Origin: an uncultured Candidatus Rokubacteria bacterium
GTDB lineage: Bacteria; Methylomirabilota; Methylomirabilia; Rokubacteriales; DASRDR01
Length of the DNA: 64,000 nt
NCBI GenBank assembly: GCA_963826115.1
Contig: CAWGVS010000006.1
Location: forward strand, 32,001-96,000
Direction: 5' to 3'
A model generated the notes under the pieces. It searched no databases. It was not told the DNA's origin and was given only the letters and a program-made list of their open reading frames with translations. Positions 828 to 24,656 of this stretch are shown here, piece by piece. The position numbers were made by a program, and so were the translations under genes. The first letter of the stretch is position 1. Each line of letters begins with the position of its first letter.

Positions 828-905
828 CCGGAAGCCGATTGACCTGAACCATAGCACGGCCCGCCCTGGGGCCTGCAAAGCGCCGTGCTAGGATCATTGC
901 CGACC

Positions 906-1688: not shown

Positions 1689-1746
1689 TCCCGGCTCGTC
1701 CCGCCCGCGGCCGGCACAACTCTGACGACCCCCTGGAGGGGAGCGC

Positions 1747-3828: not shown

Positions 3829-4199
3829 ACGCTCCAACGCATGTACTTGTCTCCCGCCACCAGCCTAGAGCGCCCAGCGGAACCGTATCGGGAACAGAGG
3901 CGGTTTGGCCGCCGATCTTTTCGCCGGCAAACGCGTATCTGCATGTCCACTCGACCGTGGCTGAGAGTGGCGAGATCCGGGGTCACCTGAAAACGTGCCT
4001 TCCGTTGTTGGTGTCCGACTACCGTTCCATACTATGGTGGCCGAAAATGAAATGCCGCGTCCGGGAGAGGGAGCCGGTTCCGCCTAACTCGACGAAGCGC
4101 GAAACGTCCCAGGAAATCCATATGCCGGTCGTCTTCGGCACAAGCGGCGGCACGCCGATTCGAGCCGGACGAAACCGCGATAAAGTGCCGGAGAAGACG

Positions 4200-5075
4200 A
4201 TGGCCCCGAGCCTGACACGCATTAGGAGCCAATGTGGTTCCATTTATCACCGGCAGCGCTCGCGGCGTCTGCTTAAGTCCCTCGAACACGACAGCGATCA
4301 CGTCGTACGCGCAGTCGCGCAGGCGCTCCAGGCTGTCCTCGATGACAATGTTCCGGCAGAAGAACGCGCCTGGATTGATCGCATCGAACGCCTGCGTGCA
4401 GAGATGAATGCCTCGACCGTTTCGATTTCGAATGTCGATTATGGAGCCCAGACTCCCGGCGATACACTTTCGGTTGACGAAATGGCCCGAGGGCAAGTTG
4501 TGACGCGCACTTTGGGGGAGGTGTGCCTCACCTCCAGCATGCCCTATCGCTGGGCGTTGTTGCTGCTCAAGCTCGTTCGCACGCTGCAGCCTTCGACGTG
4601 CCTGGAACTGGGGACCTGTGTCGGCATCTCGGCGGCATACCAGGCCGTTGCCCTGGAACTGAATCAACGGGGCCGGCTGATCACGCTCGACGGCGCCGCG
4701 CCCCTGGCGCACATCGCGCATCAGAATCTCGACTTATTGGGCCTCACTCAACGTCTGACCGTCAAGGTTGGGCGATTCAGTGACACGCTGGGCAGCGTCC
4801 TCCGCGAGCACAGCCCTGTGGACCTCGTCTTCATCGACGGCCATCATGACAGGCAGGCCACGCTCGATTACTTCGAGCAGATTTATCCGCATCTGTCGCC
4901 CAGTGCCGTTCTGCTGTGCGATGACATTCACTGGTCCCCCGGCATGCTGCAAGCGTGGCAAACTATCTCCGGCGATCGACGCCACATTCTGTCGATTGAT
5001 CTGCAACAGATCGGCATCTGCCGCGTGGGCGGCAAAGGGACGCCTCCTCGGGAAATGCGCATGCGTCTTGTGTGA
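4200..5075 (+). CDS. Class I SAM-dependent methyltransferase (Methyltransf_24-like)
   Basis: LELGTCVGISA, DLVFIDGHH and CDDIHWS motifs. Only the distal part of track ORF 2985..5075 is credible; ATG 4200 follows GGAGAAG. Visibly more AT-rich codon use than neighbours. Confidence 0.85.
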   Translation: MAPSLTRIRSQCGSIYHRQRSRRLLKSLEHDSDHVVRAVAQALQAVLDDNVPAEERAWIDRIERLRAEMNASTVSISNVDYGAQTPGDTLSVDEMARGQVVTRTLGEVCLTSSMPYRWALLLLKLVRTLQPSTCLELGTCVGISAAYQAVALELNQRGRLITLDGAAPLAHIAHQNLDLLGLTQRLTVKVGRFSDTLGSVLREHSPVDLVFIDGHHDRQATLDYFEQIYPHLSPSAVLLCDDIHWSPGMLQAWQTISGDRRHILSIDLQQIGICRVGGKGTPPREMRMRLV

Positions 5076-5132
5076 CGAGCGAGGACCCTGCCCGGGGCGG
5101 CCCCGAGCCCAAGGAATGTCGTTCCGGGGTCT

Positions 5133-5380
5133 TCGGCCACCGATTGGTCACCAAGGGAGGCGGACTAGGACGAATCTGGATGGTGTCCCCCCTGGCCGCT
5201 GCGTTCGGAAACGAGCGGAGTTACGTCCTGCGAGGTTCGCTCAGTAGCGCTCAGTCTCGCGTCCTCTTCCGTTCGTAATCGACAGGTCATCGGTTCAAGT
5301 CCGATCGTCGGCTCCAGAATTTCCAGCACTTCGACGACAGCGTTCCCATCGAGCGACGAAACTGTGCGAAAGTGTGCGAA
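5133..5380 (+). mobile_element. att-like junction 1: paired 11-bp arm motifs + tRNA-Thr(CGT) 3' half + downstream direct repeats
   Basis: TCGGCCACCGA/TTGGTCACCAA at 5133-5154. Core TTCGTAATCGACAGGTCATCGGTTCAAGTCCGATCGTCGGCTCCA at 5272-5316. ACTGTGCGAA/AGTGTGCGAA at 5361-5380. Confidence 0.8.
5272..5316 (+). pseudogene. 3' half of tRNA-Thr(CGT), anticodon loop to CCA; not an intact tRNA
   Basis: Anticodon loop TTCGTAA, variable loop AGGTC, T-arm ATCGG-TTCAAGT-CCGAT, acceptor 3' strand CGTCGGC-T-CCA. No complementary 5' GCCGAYG and no 5' anticodon-stem strand upstream. Confidence 0.85.
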
Positions 5381-5419
5381 TGCGCATTCGCCGCGCGTCG
5401 ACTGGAATGGCGAGGCGGG

Positions 5420-6265
5420 CTACTTGTCGCCGCAGACGACGATCGCGGATCCGTTGAAACGGGTCTTGCCACCGGCCGAGCTCTGAGCGGCCAGCCCGAG
5501 GACCACCTCCTTGATCTTGGCGCGCGTGGGCTCGTCCGCCTTGGCGATACCCGCCACCACCGGCGGGGCGATTTCGTTCATGAAGGTGAAGTACTCTTCG
5601 GGGCTGTTGAATTGGACCGGGACGCCGACCTCCTTTTCCGTCACGTTTCTCAGGCCGGCGTCGCGAAAGACCCCGGCCATGTAGCCGGCCGCGGCGCAAC
5701 GGAAGAGGCCCGGCGCGCCGGGAGGCGGCGCGGGCATCTCGACGTGTTTGGCGACCGTGCCCATGATGGTGGTCGCCCACGGATTCTTCTCTGGCGGACC
5801 CCACACGGCGGTGCAGACGCGGGCGCCGGGTTTGGCCACACGGGCGAGCTCGCGGGCTGCCCCCGAGACGTCGGGGAAGAACATGAAGGCGAAGCGGGCC
5901 GTGACCGCGTCGAACGTGTTGTCGGCGAAGGGTAGCGCGCCGGCGTCGCACTGGCGCGTCTCAACGTTGCGGAGACCACGGCGCGCGGCACTCTCCTTGG
6001 CGACGAGGAGCATCTTCTCGGCGAGGTCGGTCATCATGACCTTGCCTTGCGGGCAGCGAGAGGCCGCACTGAGCGCCGGCTCTCCGGTCCCCGACGCGAT
6101 GTCGAGGACGTAGGAGTCGGGCCGCAGGCGGGCACTGTCCAGAAGCTCCAGGCCGACGGGCGCGAGCCAGCCCAGCACGAGGTCGTCCCACTTCTTCCAG
6201 CCTGCTGAAAACTTGTCCCAGGTTGCCTGCTGTTGGTCCCGGATCTGCTCGGGGTGTGTTGCCAT
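5420..6265 (-). CDS. UbiE/Methyltransf_11-like SAM-dependent methyltransferase
   Basis: VLDIASGTGEP, DAGALPFADNTFDAV and ARVAKPGAR motifs. GGAGG RBS. Confidence 0.92.
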   Translation of the reverse strand: MATHPEQIRDQQQATWDKFSAGWKKWDDLVLGWLAPVGLELLDSARLRPDSYVLDIASGTGEPALSAASRCPQGKVMMTDLAEKMLLVAKESAARRGLRNVETRQCDAGALPFADNTFDAVTARFAFMFFPDVSGAARELARVAKPGARVCTAVWGPPEKNPWATTIMGTVAKHVEMPAPPPGAPGLFRCAAAGYMAGVFRDAGLRNVTEKEVGVPVQFNSPEEYFTFMNEIAPPVVAGIAKADEPTRAKIKEVVLGLAAQSSAGGKTRFNGSAIVVCGDK

Positions 6266-6325
6266 CGGTTCCTCCGCTGCCGTGTGTGACGTGACCGAAG
6301 CGGCTTGCTTGCACCAGGTGACCAG

Positions 6326-6355
6326 CTAGTAGCACTTTGCCGGCTGAACTGTCAA
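6326..6355 (-). promoter_or_regulatory. Putative sigma70 promoter of the methyltransferase
   Basis: Minus strand TTGACA-N18-TACTAG with TGn extension, about 60 bp before the ATG. Confidence 0.45.
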
Positions 6356-6467
6356 ACACTGGTTGCGTGGTTTGACCGGAGAGCGCCATTTTCGGGGAAA
6401 CGGGCCAACGGCCTCGTCTGACGGTAGCTGAGTAGTCTTCAGCTTCGCCCCATCCGCCCAGACTCTC

Positions 6468-6706
6468 TTGGCCACCAATCGGTCACCAAGAGAGGCGAAC
6501 TAGGAGGACCCTGCCGGATCTTCGCTCGCGGGCAAGCGCTCCAAAGCAGGCAGCCTTAGGTCGTCTGAGGTCGGCTCAGTAGTTCTCAGTTCGCCCGTGT
6601 TCTCAGTTCGGAATCGACAGGTCGTCGGTTCAAGTCCGATCGTCGGCTCCAGCGTTTCGATCATGTCCACGACGCCTTCCGCCCCAACCGCCCAATTGGT
6701 CACCAA
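6468..6706 (+). mobile_element. att-like junction 2 (arm pair + tRNA-Thr 3' half + downstream arm motif)
   Basis: TTGGCCACCAA/TCGGTCACCAA at 6468-6489. Core TTCGGAATCGACAGGTCGTCGGTTCAAGTCCGATCGTCGGCTCCA at 6607-6651. TTGGTCACCAA at 6696-6706. Confidence 0.8.
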
Positions 6707-6725
6707 GCGCTTTTGAACTCGCGTT

Positions 6726-6785
6726 GTCGAGCGCGTCCACCCAATGGGTGTCGGCCTGCGGGAGCCAGTGCGCGTACCACTGGAG
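6726..6785 (-). pseudogene. Remnant of a tyrosine-integrase C-terminus
   Basis: Translates as LQWYAHWLPQADTHWVDALD, resembling the catalytic-Tyr YxHW..(W)VD.LD tail of phage integrases. It points into the att-like site. No upstream R/HxxR/GH motifs in frame. Confidence 0.55.
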
Positions 6786-7019
6786 CGATCCGCGCCCGTC
6801 ACTGTCCCGGGCGGGACCCGTCGCCGGTGGGCGAGCTGCGCCATGGGAGTGACGTTGATGAGCCCGTCCTCGACGGTATCCGCGGGAATGCTTGTGGCGC
6901 CATCTTTCCGTGTCCCGCCGAGCACGCTTCTCGCGATGGGTGCACAGAAAGCAGGGCAGGGGGCTCCCAACGAACGCCTGCATGCGCCCGAACTATCGGA
7001 GAATCGCGGGGTTCCGCAA

Positions 7020-7061
7020 GGTGCACAGTCTACAGTGCAGGGTGCACAGTCTACAGTGCAG
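7020..7061. repeat. Perfect 21-bp tandem duplication with 7-bp sub-periodicity
   Basis: GGTGCACAGTCTACAGTGCAG x2. Confidence 0.95.
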
Positions 7062-7335
7062 CGTCCTCCAACTCGGCGATTCCCAACTGCTTTCGGCACG
7101 AGCCGTGGAGCTGCCATGGAGCAGACTGCCTTGCCTGGTGTGCACCGGTCGCGAGATAGGCGCGCGCAGTCCGAGCGTGTGTGGAAGCTCTTAAGCGCTC
7201 GTCACGGCAGGACGATCCCGTTCTCCCAGCTGGACGTCCGTTGTTGGCGCGAATCTCGCTAGGTGGCTCGTGTAACGCTCGCGATGGGATCGCCCTTACA
7301 CCGCCTGCCGGCGCGGCGGCGTACTAGATGAGCGT

Positions 7336-7734
7336 ATGGACGATGTGACAGGCGTGGAATATCGGCGTGTTGGGCTCGTATGGCTTCTCAGCGCATGGAC
7401 GGCTGCGGCCGGGTGCGCCATTCCGGTCCGGACCAACGGGGAAGAACGAGCGGGCCCGGCCGCCTTCGCCGTCTACGCGCTCTCGCGAGGCCGAGGCGTT
7501 CCCGAGGCGACCTCGCGCGCGTGGCACGCGGCGTGGACGTTGCTCGAGGATGCCCGGCGAGAGGGCAAGGTCGCGCAGCTCCAGCAAACCCGCATCGGTC
7601 TCGAGGGCGAGATCCGCCTGTGCGCCGAGTTCTCGGACGCGGCGCGCGCGCGGGAGCTCCTGGAACGCGTGCGGGAGATCGGGAAAGGGGTCGATTTGCT
7701 CAATGTGGTCGAGGAGCCATGTTCGAGGCAGTGA
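7336..7734 (+). CDS. Hypothetical putative lipoprotein
   Basis: Hydrophobic N-terminus ending AAAGC. Lies 27 bp upstream of the protease gene in the same orientation. Confidence 0.6.
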   Translation: MDDVTGVEYRRVGLVWLLSAWTAAAGCAIPVRTNGEERAGPAAFAVYALSRGRGVPEATSRAWHAAWTLLEDARREGKVAQLQQTRIGLEGEIRLCAEFSDAARARELLERVREIGKGVDLLNVVEEPCSRQ

Positions 7735-7761
7735 TATCCGGCCGCACAAAGGAGAACGGTC

Positions 7762-9108
7762 ATGCATAAGCGCGCTCGATCCACGTGGGTAGTGCTCGCG
7801 TGCGTCCTCGGTCTGACGGTGTTCGGCTGTCAGGCCATGCGGAGCGGCGGCTCCAAGATCCAGCCGGCCATGGGGACCGCCGTGCAGGCGACGCCCGAGG
7901 CGATCGAAGAGGCGCGCGCCGAGGTCTTGAGGAAAGACCGGGCCCAGCGCGCCGTGTGGGCGACCAAGACCTTCGAAGAGTTCGAGCGGTCCGTCTACAA
8001 GGAACCGTTTCCGGGGGGCAAGTACATAGTCAACGGCGACATCGCCATCTCGGATCGCAAGCAGCTCAAGGAGTTCTTCGAGACGAGCATCAAGCAGGAG
8101 CCGCCGCAAACCCAGCCGGGGCGGCTGATCGTCCAGCATTCGGGGGTCGACGCGGTCTGGAACAGCACCCAAAAGAAGCAGATCACGTACTGTGTGAGCA
8201 CGACCTTCGGCACTCGCCGCGCGAGCGTCGTGAGCGCCATGCAGGCGGCGACCGGCGCGTGGTCGCAGGTGGCCGACGTCGCCTACGTGTACGTCGCGTC
8301 CCAGGACACCACCTGCACCCCGAATAACGCGAACGTCGTGTTCGACGTCAACCCCGTCAACGTGAACGGCGAGTACCTCGCCCGAGCCTTCTTTCCCAAC
8401 GAGCCTCGGGCGGTGCGCAATGTGCTGATCGACGAGACGGCATTCCAGCTCGACCCGAGCGGCAAGCTGACGCTCGTCGGCATTCTTCGCCATGAACTCG
8501 GACACACCCTGGGCTGGCGGCACGAGCACACGCGCCCGGAGTCCGGCACCTGTTTCGAGGACAACGAGTGGCGGCCCCTGACGTCATACGACAGCTTTTC
8601 CGTCATGCACTATCCGCAGTGCAATGGCGCCGGGGACTGGTCGCTCACCCTCACCAACTTCGACAAGAATGGCGCCGCGTGCCTCTATGGGGCGGCGCCC
8701 GGGTTCGTGATGGATCCCAGCCTCGTGGTGAGTCCGGGGGCCTGTCAGGTCGCGGGCACGCCCACCACGCCGCCGGGGTGCGGACAGCAGCAAGTCAAGA
8801 CACTCAACGATCAGCGGGTGGCGAACGGCGAGGAGAAGTCGTACCCCGCCTTCACCGTCTCGCCCGGAAGCCGCTTCGAGGTCAAGATGATCGGCGACGG
8901 CACCGCGCCGGGCGATCCTGATCTGTACGTCCAGTTCGGCCAGGCCCCGACGCGTGTCGCGAACGGCTACGCGTGCCGGCCCTTCGTCAGCGGGCCATCG
9001 GAGGGTTGCGCGCTCGACGTCCCGGCAGGGAAGACGACCGCCTTTGTCATGGTGCACGGCTACACCGCGGGTGCCTACGATCTGACCGTCACCTACACCG
9101 GTCCCTAG
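7762..9108 (+). CDS. Secreted/lipoprotein metzincin metalloprotease (M10/M57-like) with C-terminal PPC domain
   Basis: Signal ending VFGC, YIVNGDI, HELGHTLGWRH zinc motif, SVMHY Met-turn, PPC motif GDPDLYV..G..PT..Y.CRP. AAGGAG RBS. Confidence 0.9.
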   Translation: MHKRARSTWVVLACVLGLTVFGCQAMRSGGSKIQPAMGTAVQATPEAIEEARAEVLRKDRAQRAVWATKTFEEFERSVYKEPFPGGKYIVNGDIAISDRKQLKEFFETSIKQEPPQTQPGRLIVQHSGVDAVWNSTQKKQITYCVSTTFGTRRASVVSAMQAATGAWSQVADVAYVYVASQDTTCTPNNANVVFDVNPVNVNGEYLARAFFPNEPRAVRNVLIDETAFQLDPSGKLTLVGILRHELGHTLGWRHEHTRPESGTCFEDNEWRPLTSYDSFSVMHYPQCNGAGDWSLTLTNFDKNGAACLYGAAPGFVMDPSLVVSPGACQVAGTPTTPPGCGQQQVKTLNDQRVANGEEKSYPAFTVSPGSRFEVKMIGDGTAPGDPDLYVQFGQAPTRVANGYACRPFVSGPSEGCALDVPAGKTTAFVMVHGYTAGAYDLTVTYTGP

Positions 9109-9158
9109 GCGCGTCGGCTCGGTGGCGCAACGGGCGTTCGGGAGGGAGTGACACTCGC

Positions 9159-10655
9159 ATGCCGATCCGTTTCCTCCCGAACGACCCGTTCGCGCTCGCG
9201 CTCGTTCCGCCACGAGAGCAGCCGCCTCGACCGGATCCAAATGTCCGGCAGGTCGGCTTCAGCTACACCGCGGCGATCCCGGAAGCGGTCTATCCGGTCG
9301 ACAGCGCCGAGTTTCGATTCTGGCAGTGTCGAGAAGCCGCCTTGGCCACGCTCGAGGCCTGGGCGGCGCTGGCGCCGCCGCTCCAGGCCTGGCAGAACGG
9401 CCAGCGGCTGCTTCCGCTGGTGCACGACGCCGGACGAGGGCTCAACGCCCACTACGACCGCGCGGCCGTGGCATTTTTCGGCTGGGAAACCGCCGCTCGG
9501 AGCACCTATCCGGCGGCCAGCACCGACGCGGTGGCGCACGAGGTCGGGCATGCGCTCCTCGACGCCGCCCGCCCCGAGCTGTGGGCGAGCGTGTATCCGG
9601 AGCCGGCCGCGTTTCACGAAGCCTTCGCGGATTGCATGGCCCTACTCGTGAGTCTCTTCGACGCGGGGCCGCGTCAGGCTCTGCTCCAGGGCGGTGGGCA
9701 TCTGCGAGTCGCGAACTTCCTCGAGACCCTGGCCGAGGACGTGGCCGAAGGCGTGCGACTCGAGAATCCCAATGACCCCCAGTCGCTGCCCCGCCGCGCC
9801 TTGAACACGCTCCAGTGGGAGATCCCGGTGACCCTGCCGCCGGCTGGCCTTCCCGCGGCTCTCACGTCGGAGCCGCACAGCTACAGCCGCATCTTCACCG
9901 GCTGCTTCTACGACGCCGTCTGCAACATCTTCGCGGGCCAGCCGGCTCAGGATGAACAGGGGCTTCTCGCGGCGGCGCAGACGGCGGGTCGGCTGCTGAT
10001 CGCCGGCGCTCAGGGCGCGCCTGAGGTCCCGCGTTTCTTCCAAGCCGTAGGCCGCGCCATGATGCTCGCCGACGAGACTGCGAGCGGGGGCGCCCATCAC
10101 GCGGCCATTCGCGACGCGTTCGCCGGTCACCAGATCGCGATCGGGAGCACGGTGATGCTGGCCCCGACGTCGGGGCTGGCCGGCCCCGCGCCCGCCGTGG
10201 ATGCGGCGACCGGGACGGCACGCCTTCCCGCCGTCGCCGTTCGCGATCTCCTGACGCGCATCGGCGCCCCGCGCGGCCGGCTGACCGTGACCGCCCACAA
10301 GGTCGGCGGCCAAGCCGTCGCCAAGGCCATCCATCGACGCGACATCGCCCTGGGGAAGCTCGATCGACGCCTCAAGGGAGTCGTCGTGCCCGCCGTCGAG
10401 TCTGTGCTCGTCGGTGCCAGCGCCGCACGAGCCGTCGTCTTGGGTCACCTGCCGAATGCGCACACGACCCTCGACGAGGTCCATCACTTCGTCGGAACGT
10501 TGCTGGAGCATGGCGCCATCGTCATGTCGACTGCCAAGCGCCCGAGGACACGGAAGACCGCGGCGCCCTACAGGGCACTCCTGCCGACTCACAGGCTCCA
10601 GACGCGCGGCAGCAAGAAGGTCCTCCAGCGCGTGCGTTTTTCGTGTGGCCCGTGA
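9159..10655 (+). CDS. Gluzincin metalloprotease (M4/M36-like)
   Basis: LNAHYDR, DAVAHEVGHALLD, AFHEAFAD and EPHSYS motifs. ATG 9159 follows GGAGG. No signal peptide visible. Confidence 0.85.
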   Translation: MPIRFLPNDPFALALVPPREQPPRPDPNVRQVGFSYTAAIPEAVYPVDSAEFRFWQCREAALATLEAWAALAPPLQAWQNGQRLLPLVHDAGRGLNAHYDRAAVAFFGWETAARSTYPAASTDAVAHEVGHALLDAARPELWASVYPEPAAFHEAFADCMALLVSLFDAGPRQALLQGGGHLRVANFLETLAEDVAEGVRLENPNDPQSLPRRALNTLQWEIPVTLPPAGLPAALTSEPHSYSRIFTGCFYDAVCNIFAGQPAQDEQGLLAAAQTAGRLLIAGAQGAPEVPRFFQAVGRAMMLADETASGGAHHAAIRDAFAGHQIAIGSTVMLAPTSGLAGPAPAVDAATGTARLPAVAVRDLLTRIGAPRGRLTVTAHKVGGQAVAKAIHRRDIALGKLDRRLKGVVVPAVESVLVGASAARAVVLGHLPNAHTTLDEVHHFVGTLLEHGAIVMSTAKRPRTRKTAAPYRALLPTHRLQTRGSKKVLQRVRFSCGP

Positions 10656-10795
10656 TCAGCCGACGGCATCCCGGGACCCGACCTAACCAGCGTGTTGTCG
10701 CGATGCGTGGCCCGCGCGCCGCCGAGACACGGCCCAGAAGGCGCCTTCGCTGAGCCAATCGACCGATCCCGTGGAGAGCCGAGGTACGCTCAGAA

Positions 10796-10900
10796 TCGGC
10801 GACCAATTGGCGCCGAGCTAGCCGAACTGCCCCGACCCGGGACGATCAGGGCCACCTGGCTCTTCGCTGAGATGTCGCTCGCTGACGTCGTCTGGGATCG
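10796..10900 (+). repeat. Degenerate upstream-arm remnant of the att-like repeat (no tRNA core)
   Basis: TCGGCGACCAATTGGCGCCGA..GCCGAACT matches the arm pair. GACGTCGTCTGGGATCG matches TACGTCGACTGAGATCG of copy 4. Confidence 0.5.
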
Positions 10901-10947
10901 CGCCGAAGCCCGACGCATTCGAGCACGCAATCAGCGGCCCCGTCAAT

Positions 10948-10977
10948 CCGAGACGCTACGGGCCGAGACGCTACGGG
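10948..10977. repeat. Perfect 15-bp tandem duplication
   Basis: CCGAGACGCTACGGG x2. Confidence 0.95.
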
Positions 10978-10984
10978 GACTTCA

Positions 10985-11872
10985 CTAGTGGTCGGCGGCA
11001 CGAGAGACGAGATCATGCCAGCTGCCGGAAGGCGTCCAGCCGAGTTCCCGGCGAGCGCGCTCATTGTCGTAGGGGCTGGCGCGTGGATTCTGACGGTAGA
11101 TCTCCGGTTTCCGGATCTCGGGAAGGGTGCCGTACACGTCGTGGAGATGATCGAGCGTCGGCCGTGGCTCGAACGTGTCGTCGGCTGTAATGAGGTAGGT
11201 GGCGAAGGCGGGGCCTGCCCGCTCGAGCGCCAGCCGGACCGCAAACGCGACGTCCCAAGGTGCGACGTACGAACGCAATAGCGGGATCGGCTCCGGGGGG
11301 TGAGCAGGATCGCCCGGAGACCCGAGACCATCCACCAGGCGTGCCACGATGTCCGGGAACATGATCCACGCGGGCCGAAGGCACGTGAAGGCCATCGGGC
11401 CGCGGCGGGCGAAGCTGTGCGCGATGTCTTCGCCGAGTTGCTTGCTGAGGCCGTAGGGCTGCGTGGGGCGGAGTGGGTGATCTTCGTCGATCGGGAGGTA
11501 CAAGGGCGGCCGGGTGGGGTTCGTGTGGTCGATCCCGAATGCCGAGACGCTGCTGCAGAGGACGACCCGCTGCACGCCATTCGACTGCGCTGCGTCGATC
11601 ACGTTCCAGGTGCCGCGGACGTTCGTCTCGAAGACGGTCGCCGGGGGGGCCGGGACCGACGCGTCAATCGCCGCCAGGTGAACGATCGCGTGCACACCCC
11701 GCAAGACGCGCTGGAGGTCCGGCAGATCGAGGATGTCGATGGGGAGGTCCGGCGCGATGTGGGTCTGGGCGAGGTCGAGAGTGGTCACGCGGTAGTGGGG
11801 CCGGAGCGCGGCGACGACGAACCGTCCGAGCCGCCCTGTCCCTCCGGTGACGAGCACGTGTTCGATCTGCAC
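10985..11872 (-). CDS. NAD-dependent epimerase/dehydratase (extended SDR)
   Basis: VLVTGGTGRLG, VHLAA, NVRGT and YGLSK motifs. GTG 11872 follows GGAG. Confidence 0.9.
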   Translation of the reverse strand: MQIEHVLVTGGTGRLGRFVVAALRPHYRVTTLDLAQTHIAPDLPIDILDLPDLQRVLRGVHAIVHLAAIDASVPAPPATVFETNVRGTWNVIDAAQSNGVQRVVLCSSVSAFGIDHTNPTRPPLYLPIDEDHPLRPTQPYGLSKQLGEDIAHSFARRGPMAFTCLRPAWIMFPDIVARLVDGLGSPGDPAHPPEPIPLLRSYVAPWDVAFAVRLALERAGPAFATYLITADDTFEPRPTLDHLHDVYGTLPEIRKPEIYRQNPRASPYDNERARRELGWTPSGSWHDLVSRAADH

Positions 11873-11997
11873 TGTGATCTCCGGCACGAGAGTATGTGGT
11901 GGGAGAACTCGGGCTCTCAATAACCAATGGCTCGAAGATATGGGCAGCGACAGCTTCGGGCAAGAGCATCGTCGATGGCAGTGGCGGGGGAGTTGTC

Positions 11998-12061
11998 TGT
12001 TCCATCACTTCCACGCCGCTCGTAGCACGCTCCGTTGAAGAGGCTACCCTTTGGCGACCAA
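11998..12061 (+). repeat. Degenerate downstream-arm remnant of the att-like repeat
   Basis: TTCCATCACTTCCACGCC matches the post-CCA TTCCAGCACTTCGACGAC of copy 1 at 15/18 positions. Followed by TTGGCGACCAA at 12051-12061. Confidence 0.5.
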
Positions 12062-12247
12062 CCTCTTGCGATTCCTACCGACCTCGTCCAGCCCCACCCC
12101 ACGACGGGCCGCTGCAGCGGACGAGCATGGCGGGCACGCCGAGCAGGTCCTGTGCTCAATCCTTGGGGCAATCCCGCGTCAATCGCGGACGCGTGGCCGG
12201 TCCGACTTGCCAACTTCGGCCAGCCAGCGCTCGATCGGGTCTCGACC

Positions 12248-13261
12248 TCAGCGCCCGCGTTGCATGGTCTTCTCCCAGAAGCGGATGGCGTCGGCCATCC
12301 ATCCTTGGGCACTCGTGCCTGTACCGAGCCCGAAGCCATGGCCGAGATTTACGAACTTGTGATACTCGACCAGCGTACCGGCCTTGCGAAGGGCCGCGAT
12401 CCGCCGCTCCATGCTCGACGCGGGCGCAATCACATCTTGGTCACCGACGACGACAAAGGTCGGAGGCTCATCGGACGAATAGTCTGAGTGAGCGGTGTAC
12501 GCCATCACGACGGCGGACGGTCTTGGAAGGTCGTCACCCCCAAACCCTAAAACACCCTGCGAAGCGATTGCAGCCGCCATCCTCGCGCCCGCCGAACTAC
12601 CCCACACCGAATAGTCCTTGGTGCTGACTCCGAGCGTACCTGCACTCCTGAAGATATAGGAGATGGCTGCCGCCATGTCCTCGGTGGCCGCCGCGCTGCC
12701 ATGGCCGGCCCGGTATTTCAGGACGAAGGCGTTGTATCCATTCCGGCTGATCTCCACTGCATGGGGGAAGCCTTCGTGGACGGAGCCCACGTAGGAGAAC
12801 CCGCCACCCGGGGCGACAACGGCAAACGGCGCTCCGGCCTTTCCGCGGAAGAAGAACAACCCCGTATGTTCTTTCGATGGCTCTGCCCGCTTCTGCGCCT
12901 CGGCGTAGAAATCAAAGAACATGGTCGTGCCCCTGTTCACATCGTCGATCATGTGATTCAAGGCACCCACCACGACGTCCGGACTCACATGGCTGTGATA
13001 CGGCAGCAGCGAGCCGATGTTGCTCAGCCGCGTGTCTTGATCATGGGCGCGATCGTCCCAGGGCAGTATCAACCGCCCATGACCTGCGAACGCCGGATGA
13101 TTCAGGACGTCCCGGATACGGCTGGCCACGCTCAGGTGGCCGTCGGTCACCATCTCACTCGCGACACCACGGGAGAGGACACCCTCGCTCTTTCCAGCCT
13201 CCGCAAGCGAAGCCATGGATAGCAGCGATAGCGCCCAGCCAGTGGTTCTGAGGAGATCCAT
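12248..13261 (-). CDS. Secreted alpha/beta hydrolase (esterase, BD-FAE-like)
   Basis: Signal peptide, PGGGF oxyanion motif, WGSSAG nucleophile, GDQD, GHGFG. Confidence 0.9.
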   Translation of the reverse strand: MDLLRTTGWALSLLSMASLAEAGKSEGVLSRGVASEMVTDGHLSVASRIRDVLNHPAFAGHGRLILPWDDRAHDQDTRLSNIGSLLPYHSHVSPDVVVGALNHMIDDVNRGTTMFFDFYAEAQKRAEPSKEHTGLFFFRGKAGAPFAVVAPGGGFSYVGSVHEGFPHAVEISRNGYNAFVLKYRAGHGSAAATEDMAAAISYIFRSAGTLGVSTKDYSVWGSSAGARMAAAIASQGVLGFGGDDLPRPSAVVMAYTAHSDYSSDEPPTFVVVGDQDVIAPASSMERRIAALRKAGTLVEYHKFVNLGHGFGLGTGTSAQGWMADAIRFWEKTMQRGR

Positions 13262-13570
13262 TCTCCTAATTGTGGACCCTTGTCCCGGCCGCCGCCAACG
13301 TGATGGCGGTGAACCTGCCTCGGTTGCTCGGTCGTGCGCGGCGGAACGCAGGCGATCCTCGCCACGGCCCTCGGGCTACGCCTCCCGGGGCGCCGGCCCG
13401 CCCTTTGACCGCCGCCGGAACCATAGCGCGGCTCCGCCGGGGCCGGTCAAAACGGCTGGAGCTCATGACCGCTTCCGCCTATACCGGACGAGGCGGGACT
13501 TGACTGATGTCCCCATCGAAGGCGGCGGGCCCGAGCGTCGCGAGGAGCCGTCGCACCGCGTGCGGGTCCG

Positions 13571-14674
13571 TCACCGCCCCCGGGATCCGGCGCGGGCCGC
13601 CGCGGCGCGCCGGCGGGAAGGGCGCGAGGCCTTGCCTGCGCGTCGTCCCCCAGCCGTAGCAAGTCTCTTCCGCGCCAGCGCGGCGCCCTCCGCCAGGGCT
13701 TTCAGCTTGGCGAGGGCGACCTCGCGCGCCATCGGCGCCATGCCGCAGTTGGTGCACGGGAACAGGTGCTTCGCCGGCACGTACTTCAGCGCCCGCCGGA
13801 TGGTCGCCGCGACCTCCTGCGGCGTTTCGACGTCGTCGGAGGCGACGTCGATCACCCCGACCAGCACGTCCTTGCCCTTGAGCAGTCCCAGCAGCTCGAC
13901 CGGCACCTTGGAGTGAATGCATTCCAGCGAGATCTGGTCGACCTTGCTCTTCGCCAGCGCCGGGAAGATCTCCTCGTACTGGCGCCATTCGCCGCCGAGG
14001 GTCTGTTTCCAGTCGAGGTTGGCCTTGATGCCGTAGCCGTAGCAGATGTGCACGACGGTCGTGCACTTGAGACCGGCGATCGCGCGGTGTACCGCGGCGA
14101 TGCCCCATTTCTTCACGTCTTCCATGTAGACGTTGAACGCCGGCTCGTCGAGCTGGATCACGTCGACGCCGTCCTTCTCCAGCGCGCGCGCCTCCTGGTT
14201 GAGCAGCTCGGCGAACGCCATCGCCAGCTTCACCTTGTCGCCGTAATGGCGATCGGCGATGGTGTCGACGATGGTCATCGGCCCCGGCATGGTGATCTTC
14301 ACCTTGTGCGTCGTGTTGCTGCGCAGCAGGGCGGCGTCCTTCTGGTGGACGCGCCCCTTCAGCCGCAGCGGCGCGACTACCACCGGCACCATGGCGTCGT
14401 AGCGGTTGTTGCGGATCCCCATCTTCACCTTGTGCTCGAAGTCGATGCCCTCGACGTACTCGAGGAAGCCGTGCACGAAGTGCTGCCGCGACTGCTCGCC
14501 GTCGGTGACGATGTCGATGCCGGCGACCTCCTGCTCCTTCAGCCAGAGCAGGGTGGCGTCGCGCTTGGCGCGCTCGAGCTCCTCGCCCGCGGTGCGCCAC
14601 GCCGGCCACAGCTTGTTGGTCTCGGCGAGCCAGCCGGGCTTCGGCAGACTTCCGGCGATGGTGGTTTCGAACAC
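13571..14674 (-). CDS. Cobalamin-independent core methionine synthase (MetE C-terminal domain only; MesD-like)
   Basis: AGSLPKP, TDGEQ.RQHF, QLDEPA, HICYGYG and CTNCGM zinc motifs. 367 aa, lacking the MetE N-terminal barrel. AGGAGG RBS. Confidence 0.9.
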   Translation of the reverse strand: MFETTIAGSLPKPGWLAETNKLWPAWRTAGEELERAKRDATLLWLKEQEVAGIDIVTDGEQSRQHFVHGFLEYVEGIDFEHKVKMGIRNNRYDAMVPVVVAPLRLKGRVHQKDAALLRSNTTHKVKITMPGPMTIVDTIADRHYGDKVKLAMAFAELLNQEARALEKDGVDVIQLDEPAFNVYMEDVKKWGIAAVHRAIAGLKCTTVVHICYGYGIKANLDWKQTLGGEWRQYEEIFPALAKSKVDQISLECIHSKVPVELLGLLKGKDVLVGVIDVASDDVETPQEVAATIRRALKYVPAKHLFPCTNCGMAPMAREVALAKLKALAEGAALARKRLATAGGRRAGKASRPSRRRAAAARAGSRGR

Positions 14675-14915
14675 GGTCGGTTTTCCTCCTGGCAGGATCC
14701 GACGGCCGAGCGGTACTGTGTCTCACTCTGGCGGCCGGCTTCGTCGCGCTGGCCTGCCTCGGGGCGCTGGAGTACAGCAACCGTCTCCGTCCGGAGCGGC
14801 GACGTCAGCGGACAGAATCCGCGTACGCGTCCTCTGCTTCGCACGGTCCCCGACTGGCTTGGTTCCCCGATCGTTGCCCGCGCCTTGCTGCTGGGAGTCG
14901 TCCCGGACGCTTCTT

Positions 14916-14954
14916 CGTCGGTGCGGGGCGCCGAGCTGACGCCCCGCACCGACG
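14916..14954. terminator. 15-bp perfect GC hairpin downstream of 14973..15392
   Basis: CGTCGGTGCGGGGCG-N9-CGCCCCGCACCGACG. No U-tract, so it may be a stabiliser rather than an intrinsic terminator. Confidence 0.5.
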
Positions 14955-14972
14955 CCCTTCCTGGGCTATGGG

Positions 14973-15392
14973 CTACTGGCTTGCGATGTTCCCGCAGAAA
15001 ACGTAGGTGTTGGCTTCCTGGGCCGACTTGTGGCCGTTGATGGCGAAGCCTTTCCGGAGATCGCCGATCTGCACGTCAATCACCGTCTCCGACTTGCCAT
15101 CGGTCAGCGTCGTGAGCCCGAAGGTCGGCTTGGGATCGATTTGCGCGCACGTCCCCTTGTGGACGTGCAGCGGCTGACCGACGCCCGCCGGCGCGCCCTT
15201 GATGTTGACGACGACCTTGGTCTTCGTCCCCGCCGCCTCCTCGCTGAGCACGGCGGTTCCCGACTCACCCGAGCTGTTCAGCGGCCCCAGCTGGACCGTG
15301 ATGGGCTCCGCCGCATTGGCCACTCCCGCTCCAACGAGTGCCAGGACGCCGACCGCTACCAGTGTCGAACCGAATGATCGAAGCATCGTCAC
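14973..15392 (-). CDS. Small secreted protein, CHRD/Cu-Zn-SOD-like
   Basis: Signal peptide ending ANA. SGESGTA, QPLHVHKGTC, INGHKS and CGNI motifs. GGAGG RBS. Confidence 0.75.
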   Translation of the reverse strand: MTMLRSFGSTLVAVGVLALVGAGVANAAEPITVQLGPLNSSGESGTAVLSEEAAGTKTKVVVNIKGAPAGVGQPLHVHKGTCAQIDPKPTFGLTTLTDGKSETVIDVQIGDLRKGFAINGHKSAQEANTYVFCGNIASQ

Positions 15393-15639
15393 CTCCTGTG
15401 TTGTTCGACGGGACTGTCATCCCACCGACACTGGCCATGATCCCCCAGCCGTATCGCGCCCGCAAGGCCCATGTCCCTGGCCGGCGCGTCGACACCGAGC
15501 GGAAGGAGGCGGGTTCTTCGGAGCCGTCGGCCACGGGATGGATGAGCTGCCCGGGCGGCACGTCGCGAAGCGCGGCGATCGCCGGGCGGCGCTGGAGCCG
15601 ATTCCCCGGGGCGTCCGCCCGCTATCGGCGGGCGCGATC

Positions 15640-15824
15640 TAGTCTCGGGGCGTTCCGTCGAAAGCGGGCGGGGTCATGTCGACTCAGGTCGGCTGAGTAA
15701 CGCTGGGGTTCGGCATCCTCATCCGTTCGCAATCGACGGGTCATCGGTTCAAGTGGGATCGTCGGCTCCAGTCTTTCGACCACGTCCACGACGCCTCGGC
15801 CGCTGCAGCCCGATTGGTCCCCGA
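15640..15824 (+). mobile_element. att-like junction 3
   Basis: Core TTCGCAATCGACGGGTCATCGGTTCAAGTGGGATCGTCGGCTCCA at 15726-15770. Upstream ~85 bp closely match copy 4. Downstream GTCCACGACGCCT...ATTGGTCCCCGA matches copy 2. Confidence 0.78.
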
Positions 15825-15990
15825 TCGTCAGGTACGGGCACGTCCCGCGGAGCACGAGTGGTTGACGGCCGTTCGCTCCTGGATGGCTGCGAGCCATGAG
15901 GGCTCCGACTGCCTTGGACGACCGCAGGCGCGGTGGGCGGCAGGCACGTATAATGACGCCGTAGCTGTTGACCCAGATGAGGAGAGCGCA

Positions 15991-16950
15991 ATGAAGCGGT
16001 GGATCGTGATGATTGCCCTGACCAGCCTGACGGTTCTTCCGGCCCTTTGGGGCAGCGATGCGTGGGCGCGAGCGGGCGGCGGAGGCTCGAGCGGGAGCCG
16101 TGGATCGCGCAGCTATTCGGCGCCTTCCTCGCCGAGGGTTGCGCCGACGAGCCCGGCCCGCCCGAGTCCGGCGCCCCCGGCGGGCTTCCAGCAATCGCCG
16201 CAGCGGTCCGGCTGGGGGGCCGGCATCGGCGGGATGCTCGGCGGCCTCGTTCTGGGCGGCCTCATCGGTAGCCTCCTCTTCGGCGGCGCGGGGCAGATGA
16301 GCGGCGGCATCGGTCTTCTCGAGATCATGCTTGTCGCGGGGCTCGCCTACTTCGCGTTCTCATTCTTCCGCCGGCGCCAGGCCCTCACCGCGGCACCCGC
16401 GGGGTACGCCGATCCGGGCGCGATGGGCGCGGCCTGGCACCCCGAGCCCACGTCGCGGTCCACCGCGGTCCTCGAGACCCCGGCTCCGACCGCGGCGACT
16501 GATCTCGCCCGCGGCGTCGCGCACATCCGCCAGATGGACCCGGGCTTCGATCCGGCGCGCTTCGGCGAGCCGGCATCGGACGTGTTCTTCCGCGTTCAGG
16601 CGGCATGGATGGCCCGCGACGTGGGGAGCGTGCGTGCCGCGCTCACCGAGGAGATGCACGCGACGATGCAGGCCCAGTGTCACCAGCTTCGGGCACAGCG
16701 TCGCGTGAACCGGCTCGAGAACATCGCGGTGCGCTCCGTGGATGTCACCGAGGCCTGGCAGGAAGGCGGCCAGGACTTCGTGACGGTCTGCTTCCTCGCG
16801 AGCCTGCTAGACTTCACGACGGACGAAAGCGGGACCCAGTTGCTCGAGGGCAGCCGCACCGAGCCCGTCAAGTTCGAGGAGTACTGGACCTTTGCGCGTC
16901 CGGTGGGGTCCGGTCCCTGGCGGCTGTCGGCGATCCAGCAGCCCAGCTGA
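15991..16950 (+). CDS. Tim44 domain-containing protein
   Basis: Signal + ARAGGGGSSGSRGSRSYS, Gly-rich TM, DPGFD, FFRVQAAW, NRLENIAVR and KFEEYWTF motifs. GAGGAG RBS; TATAAT at 15949-15954. Confidence 0.92.
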   Translation: MKRWIVMIALTSLTVLPALWGSDAWARAGGGGSSGSRGSRSYSAPSSPRVAPTSPARPSPAPPAGFQQSPQRSGWGAGIGGMLGGLVLGGLIGSLLFGGAGQMSGGIGLLEIMLVAGLAYFAFSFFRRRQALTAAPAGYADPGAMGAAWHPEPTSRSTAVLETPAPTAATDLARGVAHIRQMDPGFDPARFGEPASDVFFRVQAAWMARDVGSVRAALTEEMHATMQAQCHQLRAQRRVNRLENIAVRSVDVTEAWQEGGQDFVTVCFLASLLDFTTDESGTQLLEGSRTEPVKFEEYWTFARPVGSGPWRLSAIQQPS

Positions 16951-17034
16951 GGCGGAGCGACCGCTACCGCTCGATTGCCTTCGGGGCGTTGCTGCCAGTG
17001 CTCACCGTCAGGGGCTTTTCCTCCGATGGCCATT

Positions 17035-17214
17035 CTGGCGACCGAGAGGTCACCTAGCCGGACGAACCACGAGAACCTGGCGGGACCTTCGTCTCGGAGT
17101 ACTCCGTCGAAAACAGGCGCGGTTACGTCGACTGAGATCGGCTGAGTAACGCCGGGTTCGGTATCCGCATCCGTTCGTAGTCGACAGGTCATCGGTTCAG
17201 CCCGATCGTCGCCT
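17035..17214 (+). mobile_element. att-like junction 4 (degenerate, rightmost)
   Basis: CTGGCGACCGA/GAGGTCACCTA at 17035-17056. Core TTCGTAGTCGACAGGTCATCGGTTCAGCCCGATCGTCGCCTC starts at 17174. No downstream arm motif seen. Confidence 0.72.
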
Positions 17215-17429
17215 CGCCCAGGCGAGTCGACCCAGGACACTGGGATTCGCGACCGGAGGGGAGCGATCGGCGCGCTCCTCAGAAGGACGCGATACACGGG
17301 ACACTCACCGCCCTAGTCCCCTGGGTGACGGTCAGGCGCGCTTCCGGCTCGGGCCCAGGGGCACCGCTGCCACCGAGCAGGCTCCAGCGGGAGCATGGCG
17401 GCACAAGCCGCCCGGCGCCGGGCGCGCGG

Positions 17430-18701
17430 CTATGCCAGGGGAGTCGCGCTGGACACGGGGGTGGAACCAGTCTGGAGTCGCGTCGCGGCCCTCCGCGCCA
17501 CGAGCGTGTCCTTGACGAGACGCTCGATCTCGGGGATGCGAGTCGTCCAGTCGTTCTGCCGCGCGACGGCGAGACGCCGCGCCACGTCCTCGCTTGACGC
17601 CGGCCCCGCGGCCTCCCGGACCGCGGCGGCGAACGTCTCCTCGTCGCTGGCGACGCGCACCACGGATCCGTGGGCGGCATTGAGCCGTCGGATCTCGACC
17701 AGGTCGGTCGCCACCACCGGCAATCCCATCGCCAGGTACTCGTTGAGCTTGGCGGGATAGACGGCCGCGGTGTAATCGGTGAGACGGTAGGGCACCACCG
17801 CCACGTCGAACCCCTTGAGATACGTCGGCACCTGCACGTGCGGTTGTGGTCCCAGGAGCCGGACGTTCGGGCATTGTCGGAGCGTCGAGACGTCCGTCTC
17901 GATCGGGCCGACCAGGACGAAGCTCGCGTCCGGCAGGCGCCGCGCGATCCCCGCCAAGAGGACCTGGTCCACCTTGGAGTTCACGCTTCCCAGGTACCCG
18001 ACCCGGGGGTGGGGCAGGTCCCGGACCTCGGGCGGCGGGGAAGCGAGGGACAGCCGCTCGCGCTCGAACTGGCGATAGCCGACACCGAAGGGGAACAGGT
18101 GGACCCGATCCCGATACCGGAGCGCTCGCCGCGAGAGCCTCTCGCTCGTCACCAGCACGAGGTCGGCGCTCCGGAAGAGCTCCGCCTCGCTCTGGCCGAC
18201 GCGGCGAGCGCCGGGCGAGCTCGATGGAAGGTCGTCGACGCAGAAGTAGACCACGAGCTCGGGATCGATCTCGGCGATCGCGTCGCGGGTGAGGGGCGTC
18301 GGGAGAAACGTCCAGACGATCGGTCGGGAACCACCGGTGGCGCGTAACCAGCGCCGGATGGGGCGCATGAGGAGCGTCCGGTTGATCCGGCGGGCCACCG
18401 GCGAGTAAGGGAACGGCAGGATCAGGGGTGAGTAGATGGAGAGGTTCGCCCGCTCCGTGCGGAGCCCGCCCGCCCCGCGGCGCCAGTTCCGGAGGCGTCG
18501 GGCCAGCCGCGGCAGGTCTCGGAGCTCGGGAGTCCGGACCCCGGTGTTCTCGACGAACAGTACGCGGCTTCCCTCGGCCGCGAGGGTGGCCATGATCTCG
18601 TGGTGTCCCTGCCAGTTGAAGTCCCAGTCGATCGACGAGATGCACACGATGCGCTCGCCGGCGCGCGGATGTGCGTCGCCACGCGGGGCGTCGTCAGCCA
18701 T
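17430..18701 (-). CDS. GT4-like glycosyltransferase (TuaH-like)
   Basis: ISSIDWDFNWQ, VYFCVDD, GYLGS and YPAKLNEYLAMGLPVV motifs. ATG 18701; the upstream extension of the track ORF is not credible. Confidence 0.9.
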   Translation of the reverse strand: MADDAPRGDAHPRAGERIVCISSIDWDFNWQGHHEIMATLAAEGSRVLFVENTGVRTPELRDLPRLARRLRNWRRGAGGLRTERANLSIYSPLILPFPYSPVARRINRTLLMRPIRRWLRATGGSRPIVWTFLPTPLTRDAIAEIDPELVVYFCVDDLPSSSPGARRVGQSEAELFRSADLVLVTSERLSRRALRYRDRVHLFPFGVGYRQFERERLSLASPPPEVRDLPHPRVGYLGSVNSKVDQVLLAGIARRLPDASFVLVGPIETDVSTLRQCPNVRLLGPQPHVQVPTYLKGFDVAVVPYRLTDYTAAVYPAKLNEYLAMGLPVVATDLVEIRRLNAAHGSVVRVASDEETFAAAVREAAGPASSEDVARRLAVARQNDWTTRIPEIERLVKDTLVARRAATRLQTGSTPVSSATPLA

Positions 18702-21414: not shown

Positions 21415-21508
21415 GAGCAATGGGGGCGCGAGGCTCACGCGCCGGGACCGCGCGGTGCCCTGACGCGTTGACTGATCTGCATCCGATTGATACGCAAGGA
21501 ATGCCACC

Positions 21509-23220: not shown

Positions 23221-23301
23221 CGACTACGGCCCGGGCCCGGGCATGGCGCCGAGACGTGTGAAGGGAACGTGGCGTCGTGCTGGCGCGAGGCCCCCCACGC
23301 G

Positions 23302-24655: not shown

Positions 24656-24656
24656 T

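Follow-up and report, generated by a model that had tools for sequence, protein, structure and literature searches.

Cis-mobilisable elements (CIMEs) were defined for the ICESt1-type islands of Streptococcus thermophilus; as portrayed in the review PMC5704250, they are flanked by att sites, are devoid of integration and transfer genes, and follow one another in tandem at a target gene's 3' end, new ones being inserted beside the old. The Dehalococcoides genomes, in the account of PMC3146451, contain many tandem islands within less than 100 kb past one small-RNA gene, ssrA, with 3'-end direct repeats and strain-specific cargo; an integration module is present by attL in some of them and absent in others, and the authors suggest possible CIMEs. 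The tycheposons of Prochlorococcus are described as tRNA-targeting elements that combine cargo with integrase and excisionase genes and with a replication module of helicase type, and in their islands successive integrations push older elements inward, with partial tRNAs and integrase fragments scattered among them (bioRxiv 10.1101/2020.12.28.424599). Islander tallies the anticodon as one of two att sublocations (2083 of 3919 islands) and, as its method is set out, requires that each member of a tandem have its own integrase; 125 tandems of at least two islands and 4 of at least three were counted among the 3919 (PMC4383910). Here we analysed a stretch of 64,000 nt ("the window") of contig CAWGVS010000006.1 (C6) from an uncultured Candidatus Rokubacteria bacterium. 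The region corresponds to the distal two thirds of an array of islets anchored in tandem at a tRNA-Thr(CGT) gene, and the phenomenon is of the same kind as the streptococcal CIMEs, the Dehalococcoides ssrA islands and the tycheposon islands, in so far as the sources above describe them.

The window covers C6:32001-96000 of a genome (G000) of 6.24 Mb in 12 contigs, with 72% GC and 64 tRNA genes. Its congeners G001, G002, G003, G004, G008, G013 and G014 served for comparison, and homology of cargo blocks at the DNA level was searched in 20 genomes of the family. A preliminary description of the sequence had reported four co-oriented tRNA-Thr 3' halves that start at the anticodon loop, and had predicted an intact tRNA-Thr(CGT) to the left of the window in the same orientation. 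Both statements hold. ARAGORN locates a single-copy intact tRNA-Thr(CGT) at C6:5892-5967 on the + strand, 26 kb left of the window and co-oriented with the 3' halves, and calls no tRNA gene within the window. Using the 64 tRNA genes as blastn queries we identified five displaced 3' halves, all on the + strand (C6:31622, 37272, 38607, 47726 and 49174) and all within 43 kb downstream of the intact gene; there are none elsewhere in the 6.24 Mb. The first (c0, core C6:31622-31666) is an additional junction outside the window, at window position -378. The other four are distributed as follows.

5272-5316, + strand: core c1, 3' half of tRNA-Thr(CGT), tRNA positions 32-76, 45 of 45 positions identical (blastn)
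6607-6651, + strand: core c2, 43 of 45 positions identical to the tRNA (blastn)
15726-15770, + strand: core c3, 41 of 45 positions identical to the tRNA (blastn)
17174-17211, + strand: core c4, shortened, 3' end lost, 36 of 39 positions identical; the shared trailer is not found behind it

Identity to the tRNA begins at position 32, in the anticodon loop, in all five copies, and amounts to 100, 100, 95.6, 91.1 and 92.3% from c0 to c4 (blastn). An intact tRNA gene, co-oriented displaced 3' fragments downstream of it and an att site centred on the anticodon, a canonical sublocation, are also the features by which Islander describes islands in tRNA genes (PMC4383910). The core-to-core distances of 1335, 9119 and 1448 bp agree with the units first delimited, except that the 9119-bp unit is not a single one (see below).

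The repeat of about 45 nt first described is the core of a longer junction. Homology between junctions extends over about 260 nt and comprises an upstream arm of about 150 nt (P arm), the 45-nt core, a trailer of about 20 nt with the consensus GYYTTTCRAYCACNTCCACGAC, and a downstream arm of about 50 nt (P' arm). The P arm contains tandem 11-bp GGYYACCAA sites and two more conserved boxes. The tandem pairs were found where they had been announced, starting at 5133, 6468 and 17035, each exactly 139 nt upstream of cores c1, c2 and c4; for c0 the distance is 138 nt. The arms seen in the window, some of them with a profile hidden Markov model (HMM), are listed below.

5122-5271, + strand: P arm of c1 (right end of islet 2), tandem TCGGCCACCGA / TTGGTCACCAA at 5133-5154; HMM match C6:37132-37272, E 4.6e-26
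5317-5393, + strand: trailer and P' arm of islet 3, tandem TGTGCGAA repeats, 83% identical to the attL of G014
6457-6606, + strand: P arm of c2, tandem TTGGCCACCAA / TCGGTCACCAA at 6468-6489; P-arm HMM E 1.3e-30
6652-6720, + strand: trailer and P' arm of islet 4a, one TTGGTCACCAA at 6696-6706
10795-10900, + strand: decayed junction in which a P-arm remnant of the GGCTACCA class is left and the core is eroded; nhmmer E 5.4e-13 genome-wide
15599-15725, + strand: P arm of c3, distal part including the tandem sites lost or diverged; P-arm HMM positions 15-142, E 9e-19
15771-15825, + strand: trailer and degenerate P' site of c3, TTGGTCCCCGA at 15814-15824 with 2 mismatches
17035-17173, + strand: P arm of c4, degenerate pair CTGGCGACCGA / GAGGTCACCTA at 17035-17056; P-arm HMM E 4.8e-30

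The decayed junction at 10795-10900 divides the 9.1-kb unit into two islets, 4a and 4b. Two copies of a tandem 14-bp repeat, CGAGACGCTACGGG, were observed behind its P-arm remnant.

The downstream arms vary. Two TGTGCGAA repeats follow c1; c0, c2 and c3 have GGTCACCAA-type sites 44-45 nt past CCA, as had been noticed for c2 and c3 (one motif each, at 6696 and at 15814, the latter having 2 mismatches); and the intact tRNA-Thr(CGT) itself is followed by a GGCTACCA site. Junction c1 is a hybrid, with TGTGCGAA repeats in its P' arm and GGYCACCAA repeats in its P arm. The arm sites are degenerate at c3 and c4. Exact copies of TTGGTCACCAA number four in the 6.24-Mb genome, all at Thr junctions, for 0.28 expected; when one mismatch is allowed there are 18 matches, of which 8 fall within C6:1-60000 and 7 of these 8 at junctions. 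A genome-wide nhmmer search with the P-arm profile gave six copies in the Thr array, one fused to a tRNA-Lys fragment on contig C12, in the Lys array presented below, and no others. Serial integration predicts that the P arm of the left islet becomes joined to the P' arm of the right islet, which would account for differing downstream arms behind upstream pairs of the GGYYACCAA type. The comparison of the arms, together with the match to the attL of G014, supports the proposal made at the outset that the Thr junctions are attP-like hybrids with arm-type repeats, left by tandem integration at tRNA-Thr(CGT). The attP of phage lambda is laid out as P1/P2, X1/X2 and P'1-3. By likeness to this layout, which serves as an analogy only, the tandem repeats are probably bound by the arm domain of an integrase, by an excisionase, or by both.

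Mobility genes were then considered. Integrases were searched with PF00589 in six frames on the whole genome and by tblastn on C6:1-60000. The PF00589 search gave 10 matches in the genome and none on contig C6. The early statement that the array carries unrelated cargo and no intact integrase stands. With tblastn, the genome's own 10 integrase frames gave a best E value of 0.17 in C6:1-60000, and four integrase frames from congener Thr arrays gave no match there at E <= 0.05. PF00239 (serine recombinase) has one match in the genome, on C5, and none in the Thr array; PF12728 (HTH_17) has nine, none of them in the Thr or Lys array. The two matches of PF03796 are on C12 and C8, the full-length one on C12 being probably the chromosomal DnaB, and no DnaB_C domain adjoins an integrase anywhere in the genome. 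Genes beyond those of the tool lists were called with an open reading frame (ORF) picker based on GC3, which is not a validated gene finder. In all, 33 proteins were called in five islets of the Thr array; one ORF of 60 aa and one of 64 aa were left out of the domain scans. Pfam was run on 30 Thr-array ORFs, the Tim44 ORF was scanned among 10 further proteins, and NCBIfam and PHROGs were run on 10 unassigned ORFs; none of these scans gave a mobility domain.

The Thr units are flanked by attL/attR-type sites, with P and P' arms homologous to the att sites of integrase-bearing congener islands, and have no integration or transfer genes of their own among the scanned ORFs, as is described for CIMEs. 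No tandem member was found to have its own integrase, and under the integrase-per-island rule of Islander, as set out in PMC4383910, the array would be filtered out. The set of tyrosine recombinase, excisionase and helicase or primase by an att site, which characterizes tycheposons, is found neither in the window nor in the genome; it is present in G014 at the same tRNA. It had been proposed to look for a cognate integrase next to arm repeats in this genome, and none was located. The only candidate for action in trans is an intact integrase of 381 aa at C2:35833-36975, which is 38% identical to the G014 Thr integrase and is the closest paralog of the congener Thr-array integrases. An HTH_17 gene lies upstream of it and TGTGCG-like words follow its stop codon (region C2:35675-37300); no tRNA core was found beside it, and it is retained as a candidate only. 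An exact 40-nt core pattern had no match in viral contigs.

Comparison with the Thr locus of congeners indicates where an integrase would be expected. Behind the tRNA of G014 come the same trailer, a TGTGCGGGA pair, a convergent tyrosine integrase gene of 399 aa (PF00589, E 1e-15), an HTH_17 protein, a DnaB_C helicase and then cargo. From the start of core c1, window positions 5272-5393 correspond to G014:C16:301680-301802 with 83% identity, and this homology stops within 3 nt of the stop codon of the G014 integrase; a co-oriented methyltransferase gene takes its place in the genome under study. In G004, integrase frames of 327 and 240 aa lie behind two of the four junctions and a frameshifted remnant behind one more, and in G013 an integrase pseudogene lies behind the junction at C19:28767, by a GGCTACCA pair. 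These frames and pseudogenes are convergent with the core and occupy the position of the G014 integrase.

Cargo at the locus is hypervariable and differs almost entirely between congeners. For only 1 of the 33 array proteins do the Thr arrays of G003, G004, G013 or G014 contain a homolog (62% identity), and 2 of the 33 have weak matches (30-32% identity) beyond the last junction of congener Thr arrays. It might have been objected that the cargo genes are syntenic in relatives; they are not. What congeners do have in common is the promoter region of the tRNA, on one side, and the distal flank, on the other. In G003, which has a single Thr islet of 9 kb, a GMC oxidoreductase gene lies directly past the last junction; its counterpart here, at window positions 19367-20965, is 91% identical at the amino-acid level. 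Only from about 31000-33760 onwards is the flank syntenic, with 82-87% identity across eight congeners. This implies that about 14 kb past c4 are also variable, with junctions lost, and that the hypervariable locus measures about 57 kb, not 43 kb.

The same architecture recurs at tRNA-Lys(CTT), which speaks for accretion. This tRNA (C12:647501-647576, - strand) is followed by 13 co-oriented 3' halves over 66 kb (array C12:581387-647576), with units of 1.0-12.5 kb and fragment identity beginning at tRNA positions 30-32. A probe made of Lys core and trailer has 15 matches in G003 and 23 in G008, the intact tRNA being counted in each. The Lys P arms form at least four classes, one of them related to the Thr P arm, and every class has a tandem pair of its own at the same distance to the core. 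At 11 of the 13 junctions the core is followed by the hairpin-plus-T-run trailer of the intact tRNA-Lys gene; at the other two there is a different hairpin and a GCTACCA pair, and one of these two also has a 184-aa integrase stub (C12:629149-629700), the only one of the array. The Lys array of G003 gave no PF00589 match at E <= 0.001 and two short C-terminal stubs by tblastn. Lys cassette 9, an integrase-free unit of 2.7 kb with SDR, SnoaL-like and AraC regulator genes, is 95.2% identical to its counterpart in G003 and 96% in G001, for a baseline against G003 of 78-81% in the flanks by the Lys locus and 83% in the syntenic flank by the Thr locus. The edges of this homology fall exactly at CCA on the right and just past the core on the left. 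To judge from these edges and identities, the cassette is the one direct sign of an integrase-free unit having moved between species core to core.

We consider it rather probable that the Thr array results from tandem site-specific accretion at tRNA-Thr(CGT), followed by the loss of mobility modules, which left CIME-like units. What happened in which order, by which recombination chemistry and with which repeat-binding proteins is here inferred. Circular elements of one family would have carried an attP composed of a P arm, a copy of tRNA-Thr(CGT) from anticodon loop to CCA with its trailer, and a P' arm that likewise had tandem sites and behind which a tyrosine integrase gene lay in convergent orientation. 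Such ancestral elements, of the int-xis-helicase type, would have recombined repeatedly with the chromosomal tRNA in the anticodon loop, each integration rebuilding the tRNA from the copy on the element and displacing the old 3' half and the earlier islets further downstream, with the newest unit lying nearest to the tRNA. Core identity falls with distance, and c3 and c4 have degenerate arm sites, which is what older distal units would be expected to show. Since no cognate helper module was found in the genome, the array would at present be dormant or fossil, and it may be excised or rearranged only by an integrase from an incoming int-xis-helicase element.

To characterize what has been accumulated we examined the content of the islets. 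Six are recognisable, of 25.7, 5.6, 1.3, about 4.2, about 4.8 and 1.4 kb; none has an integrase, excisionase or replication gene, so that on their own they would be immobile. The array DNA has 68.1% GC, against 71.8% for contig C6. The cargo comprises parts of Zn/Mn-type ABC transporters, SPFH proteins, a P-type ATPase, glycosyltransferases, two methyltransferases, an M10 peptidase, an epimerase, an esterase, a MetE-like protein, and small secreted and Tim44-domain proteins; 10 array ORFs have no family in Pfam, NCBIfam or PHROGs. It is ordinary accessory metabolism. The part included in the window is as follows, SAM standing for S-adenosylmethionine.

1-5121: right part of islet 2 (islet C6:31667-37271, 5.6 kb), 67.6% GC, left boundary c0
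1-878 (- strand), 885-1688 (+ strand) and 1747-3828 (+ strand): glycosyltransferase genes of islet 2, Pfam GT2/GT1/GT4, followed by about 1.3 kb without a confident gene
5420-6265, - strand: gene of a class I SAM methyltransferase (Pfam Methyltransf_25/11, E 2e-21), the sole cargo of islet 3, which measures 1.29 kb from core to core
6721-10794: cargo of islet 4a, namely an unassigned ORF at 7336-7734 (+ strand), an M10-type metallopeptidase at 7762-9108 (+ strand) and an unassigned ORF at 9642-10592 (- strand) (Pfam)
10985-15392, - strand: cargo of islet 4b, namely an NAD epimerase at 10985-11920, an alpha/beta hydrolase at 12248-13261, a MetE-like catalytic domain at 13571-14674 and a secreted 139-aa protein at 14973-15392 (Pfam, translation)
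15814-16950, + strand: gene of a protein with a Tim44-like domain (Pfam Tim44, E 4e-41), the sole cargo of islet 5, which measures 1.40 kb
17215-31000: variable DNA right of c4 with no recognisable junction, including a GT1 gene at 17430-19322 (- strand), the GMC oxidoreductase gene at 19367-20965 (+ strand) and more (Pfam, genus-wide DNA search)

Homologs of several of these genes were found near tRNA fragments in other genomes. The methyltransferase gene of islet 3 has a 92% identical copy in G008:C90, about 870 nt from a 3' half of the tRNA-Arg(TCT) type. The epimerase of islet 4b has an 87% identical counterpart in the Thr array of G002, with a Thr junction 2.2 kb upstream of it, and the esterase of the same islet has an 86% identical copy in G014, 2 kb from a tRNA-Glu fragment. 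For the Tim44 unit the homology covers a block (15922-17215), P arm and core included, which shares 90% identity with a unit of a Thr array in G008:C95. The block 6920-10653 of islet 4a is 91% identical to G014:C10 and 77% to G003:C4, the G014 copy having no tRNA fragment within 4 kb. Judging from these matches, the cargo circulates among tRNA-linked islands, but not always with its own arms.

Two genes of islet 4b have relatives of another kind. Nearly all genomes of the family have a core-type gene to which the MetE-like gene (13571-14674, - strand) is about 69-72% identical and of which it is a diverged extra copy on the island; the depth of metagenome contigs peaks at it because of cross-mapping. 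The secreted 139-aa protein (14973-15392, - strand), with a signal peptide and HVH and Cys motifs, belongs to a multi-copy family, of which 73-84% identical copies occur in many congeners and one more in this genome (C3:13402-13782). Two copies are on the G004 contig that bears the Thr array, one of them (C15:324071-324409) between the last two G004 junctions.

Accretion followed by module loss has to be weighed against several of these observations. Integrase remnants were found in none of the six Thr islets and in 1 of the 13 Lys islets, which is cleaner than random decay predicts. The P' arm sites are kept in five places out of five (the tRNA and c0 to c3) though the adjoining integrase is gone, and the 11 Lys junctions with the terminator-like trailer of the tRNA have it in place of an integrase-type P' arm. 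The homology blocks of the methyltransferase gene and of islet 4a exclude the att arms, so that some gene flux would have taken other routes.

Part of this evidence would fit units that were born integrase-free and are inserted, excised and shuffled in trans by rare int-xis-helicase members, the islets then forming a living reservoir comparable to integron cassettes. The module of about 200 nt made of P arm and tRNA 3' half would play the role of attC and the tRNA that of attI. Besides the scarcity of integrase remnants, to which only the two short stubs of the G003 Lys region are to be added, the P' homology of c1 to the integrase-bearing attL ends no more than 3 nt from the stop codon with the methyltransferase gene in place; islets 3 and 5 hold one gene each, within 1.3-1.4 kb and with complete arms; P arms are conserved across unrelated cargo in at least four classes of repeat specificity; and Lys cassette 9 is 95-96% identical in G001 and G003 between core-bounded edges, versus 82-87% for syntenic flanks. 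Against this, the genome has no DnaB_C beside an integrase and contig C6 has no integrase at all, the distal junctions decay as though unselected, and the integrase stubs and frameshifted integrases of relatives show that decay by deletion does occur. A reordering relative to G008:C30 would suggest shuffling, but G008 is a 9.1-Mb bin with 7% contamination and we do not rely on it. We regard this second explanation as possible, at a clearly lower probability than accretion with subsequent loss. Equally tentative is its extension to the lineage, namely that single tRNA genes (Thr-CGT, Lys-CTT) dock from 5 to 15 or more integrase-free cassettes each, often of one gene or a small operon, which would be exchanged in trans between species under several coexisting arm-site specificities, as a tRNA-anchored counterpart of integrons.

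Mobilisation of the units in trans is plausible. The clean absence of integrases and the one cassette exchanged between species argue for mobility, and the decay gradient, the integrase stubs of relatives and the lack of a helper module in the genome argue for fossils; the data do not cleanly separate the two. Public reads were also considered. They come from soil and plant metagenome runs that contain at most 0.30 of the sampled words; 4 of the 23 runs listed were compared with window positions 3000-19000 and gave short contigs of low depth. The seven read-contig joints listed, at this low coverage, have sides of 20-22 nt or fall inside one gene, and none is at a core; they have no bearing on excision, circles or empty sites, of which no sign was seen. 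One 247-nt metagenome contig (X3) matches positions 6592-6838 with 0 differences and spans c2 into islet 4a; its run may be the source sample.

Three further explanations do without a site-specific recombinase acting on the tRNA gene. Structured small RNA genes, with a tRNA-like 3' domain and an upstream domain, could lie between operons as units of about 200 nt, and the conservation of such units across genomes of the genus would fit. However, the window has no Rfam match and no tRNA call, and folding 11 copies together gives a weak consensus (-13.4 kcal/mol, with a covariation term of -0.3), with only the T-arm supported: the other helices are few, with several pairs broken in 2 to 4 of the 11 copies, while some pairs are changed on both sides. 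The 5' strand of the anticodon stem is absent, and what is conserved are short boxes and direct repeats, as in sites to which proteins bind. The reading as RNA genes, very improbable in our judgement, was rejected on account of the missing Rfam match and tRNA call and of the weak fold. That the junctions arose by homologous recombination, or by a segmental duplication at the 3' region of the tRNA, is just as hard to credit: identical segments of 45-80 nt could support RecA-dependent insertion of circles, but this would leave unexplained both the P arms with tandem sites at fixed distance and the congener integrases at the expected place and orientation. The least credible is a dispersed repeat derived from the tRNA, similar to miniature inverted-repeat transposable elements or short interspersed nuclear elements and spread by transposition, an objection foreseen in the preliminary description and ruled out by the genome-wide census: the unit is short (about 200-260 nt) and partly tRNA-like, but the repeats are not scattered, all five being co-oriented within the 43 kb past the cognate tRNA, there are no terminal inverted repeats or target duplications, and the tRNA-Lys array has the 3' half of its own tRNA.

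Other tRNA genes of the genome also showed traces of insertions. Between tRNA-Arg(TCG) and tRNA-Arg(CCG), which are 158 nt apart in G003, there is a 3-kb insert that ends in a tRNA-Arg(TCG) 3' half (C12:648309-648353). At tRNA-Ala(GGC) and tRNA-Arg(TCT) there are small islets (C12:792231-794825 and C12:685028-691273), in each of which a truncated integrase directly adjoins the tRNA and a 3' half is displaced. A call of "tRNA-Pyl(CTA)" at C12:686301 has the same 3' half as the Arg(TCT) fragment and might represent a tRNA copy in decay. Contig C1 (108 kb, 70.5% GC) has a 420-aa integrase frame at its start, an integrase fragment at its end, and tRNA-Met and tRNA-Glu 3' fragments at 70-80 kb. This contig is possibly a plasmid or an integrative element in its own right.

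The locus can now be set against the described systems. In comparison with the streptococcal CIMEs as presented in PMC5704250, there are many more units (6 and 13), some of them with a single gene, and no conjugation genes were seen even in the integrase-bearing relative; as regards cis- or trans-mobilisation, the likeness to CIMEs is one of sequence anatomy. Dehalococcoides is described with a serine recombinase, DsiB (CcrB-like), a 20-bp tmRNA repeat and crossover in the T loop (PMC3146451), whereas here we find a tyrosine integrase, a 45-nt repeat plus trailer, a predicted crossover in the anticodon loop and long conserved arms with tandem sites. The likeness to tycheposons is one of gene content and layout as described for these, and the host is a soil lineage with 72% GC. 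Relative to the accretion described in these sources, the Thr and Lys arrays differ by the number and small size of units, by the near-total absence of integrase remnants, by a long conserved P arm with interchangeable repeat classes, and by Lys P' arms replaced by the tRNA trailer. As in integrons, promiscuous and mostly small cargo units, each with its own recombination site, are gathered at one locus with the recombinase outside the units. In contrast to integrons, there is no intI, attI or Pc by the array, which starts at a tRNA gene, there is no folded attC-type site, and Thr and Lys units often have their own regulators and lie in both orientations. The suggestion of a new integron-like system was accordingly not upheld: no resident integrase, attI or folded attC-type site was found, and tandem accretion leaving CIMEs is already established in the accounts given by PMC5704250 and PMC3146451. 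A limited literature search found no publications on mobile elements of such kind in Rokubacteria.

Tools that require an integrase in each island, such as Islander, would miss such arrays, and integrase-free accretion may therefore be under-counted. If the conservative reading is true, namely accretion followed by module loss, the locus is a clean and well-delimited case of a tRNA gene becoming a hypervariable accessory-gene locus, in genomes of long-read quality from an uncultured soil phylum. If the units are mobilised in trans, they would represent a second, independent solution to cassette-wise gene sharing, with a portable site of about 200 nt, and the arm repeats could be used to match cassettes with integrases.

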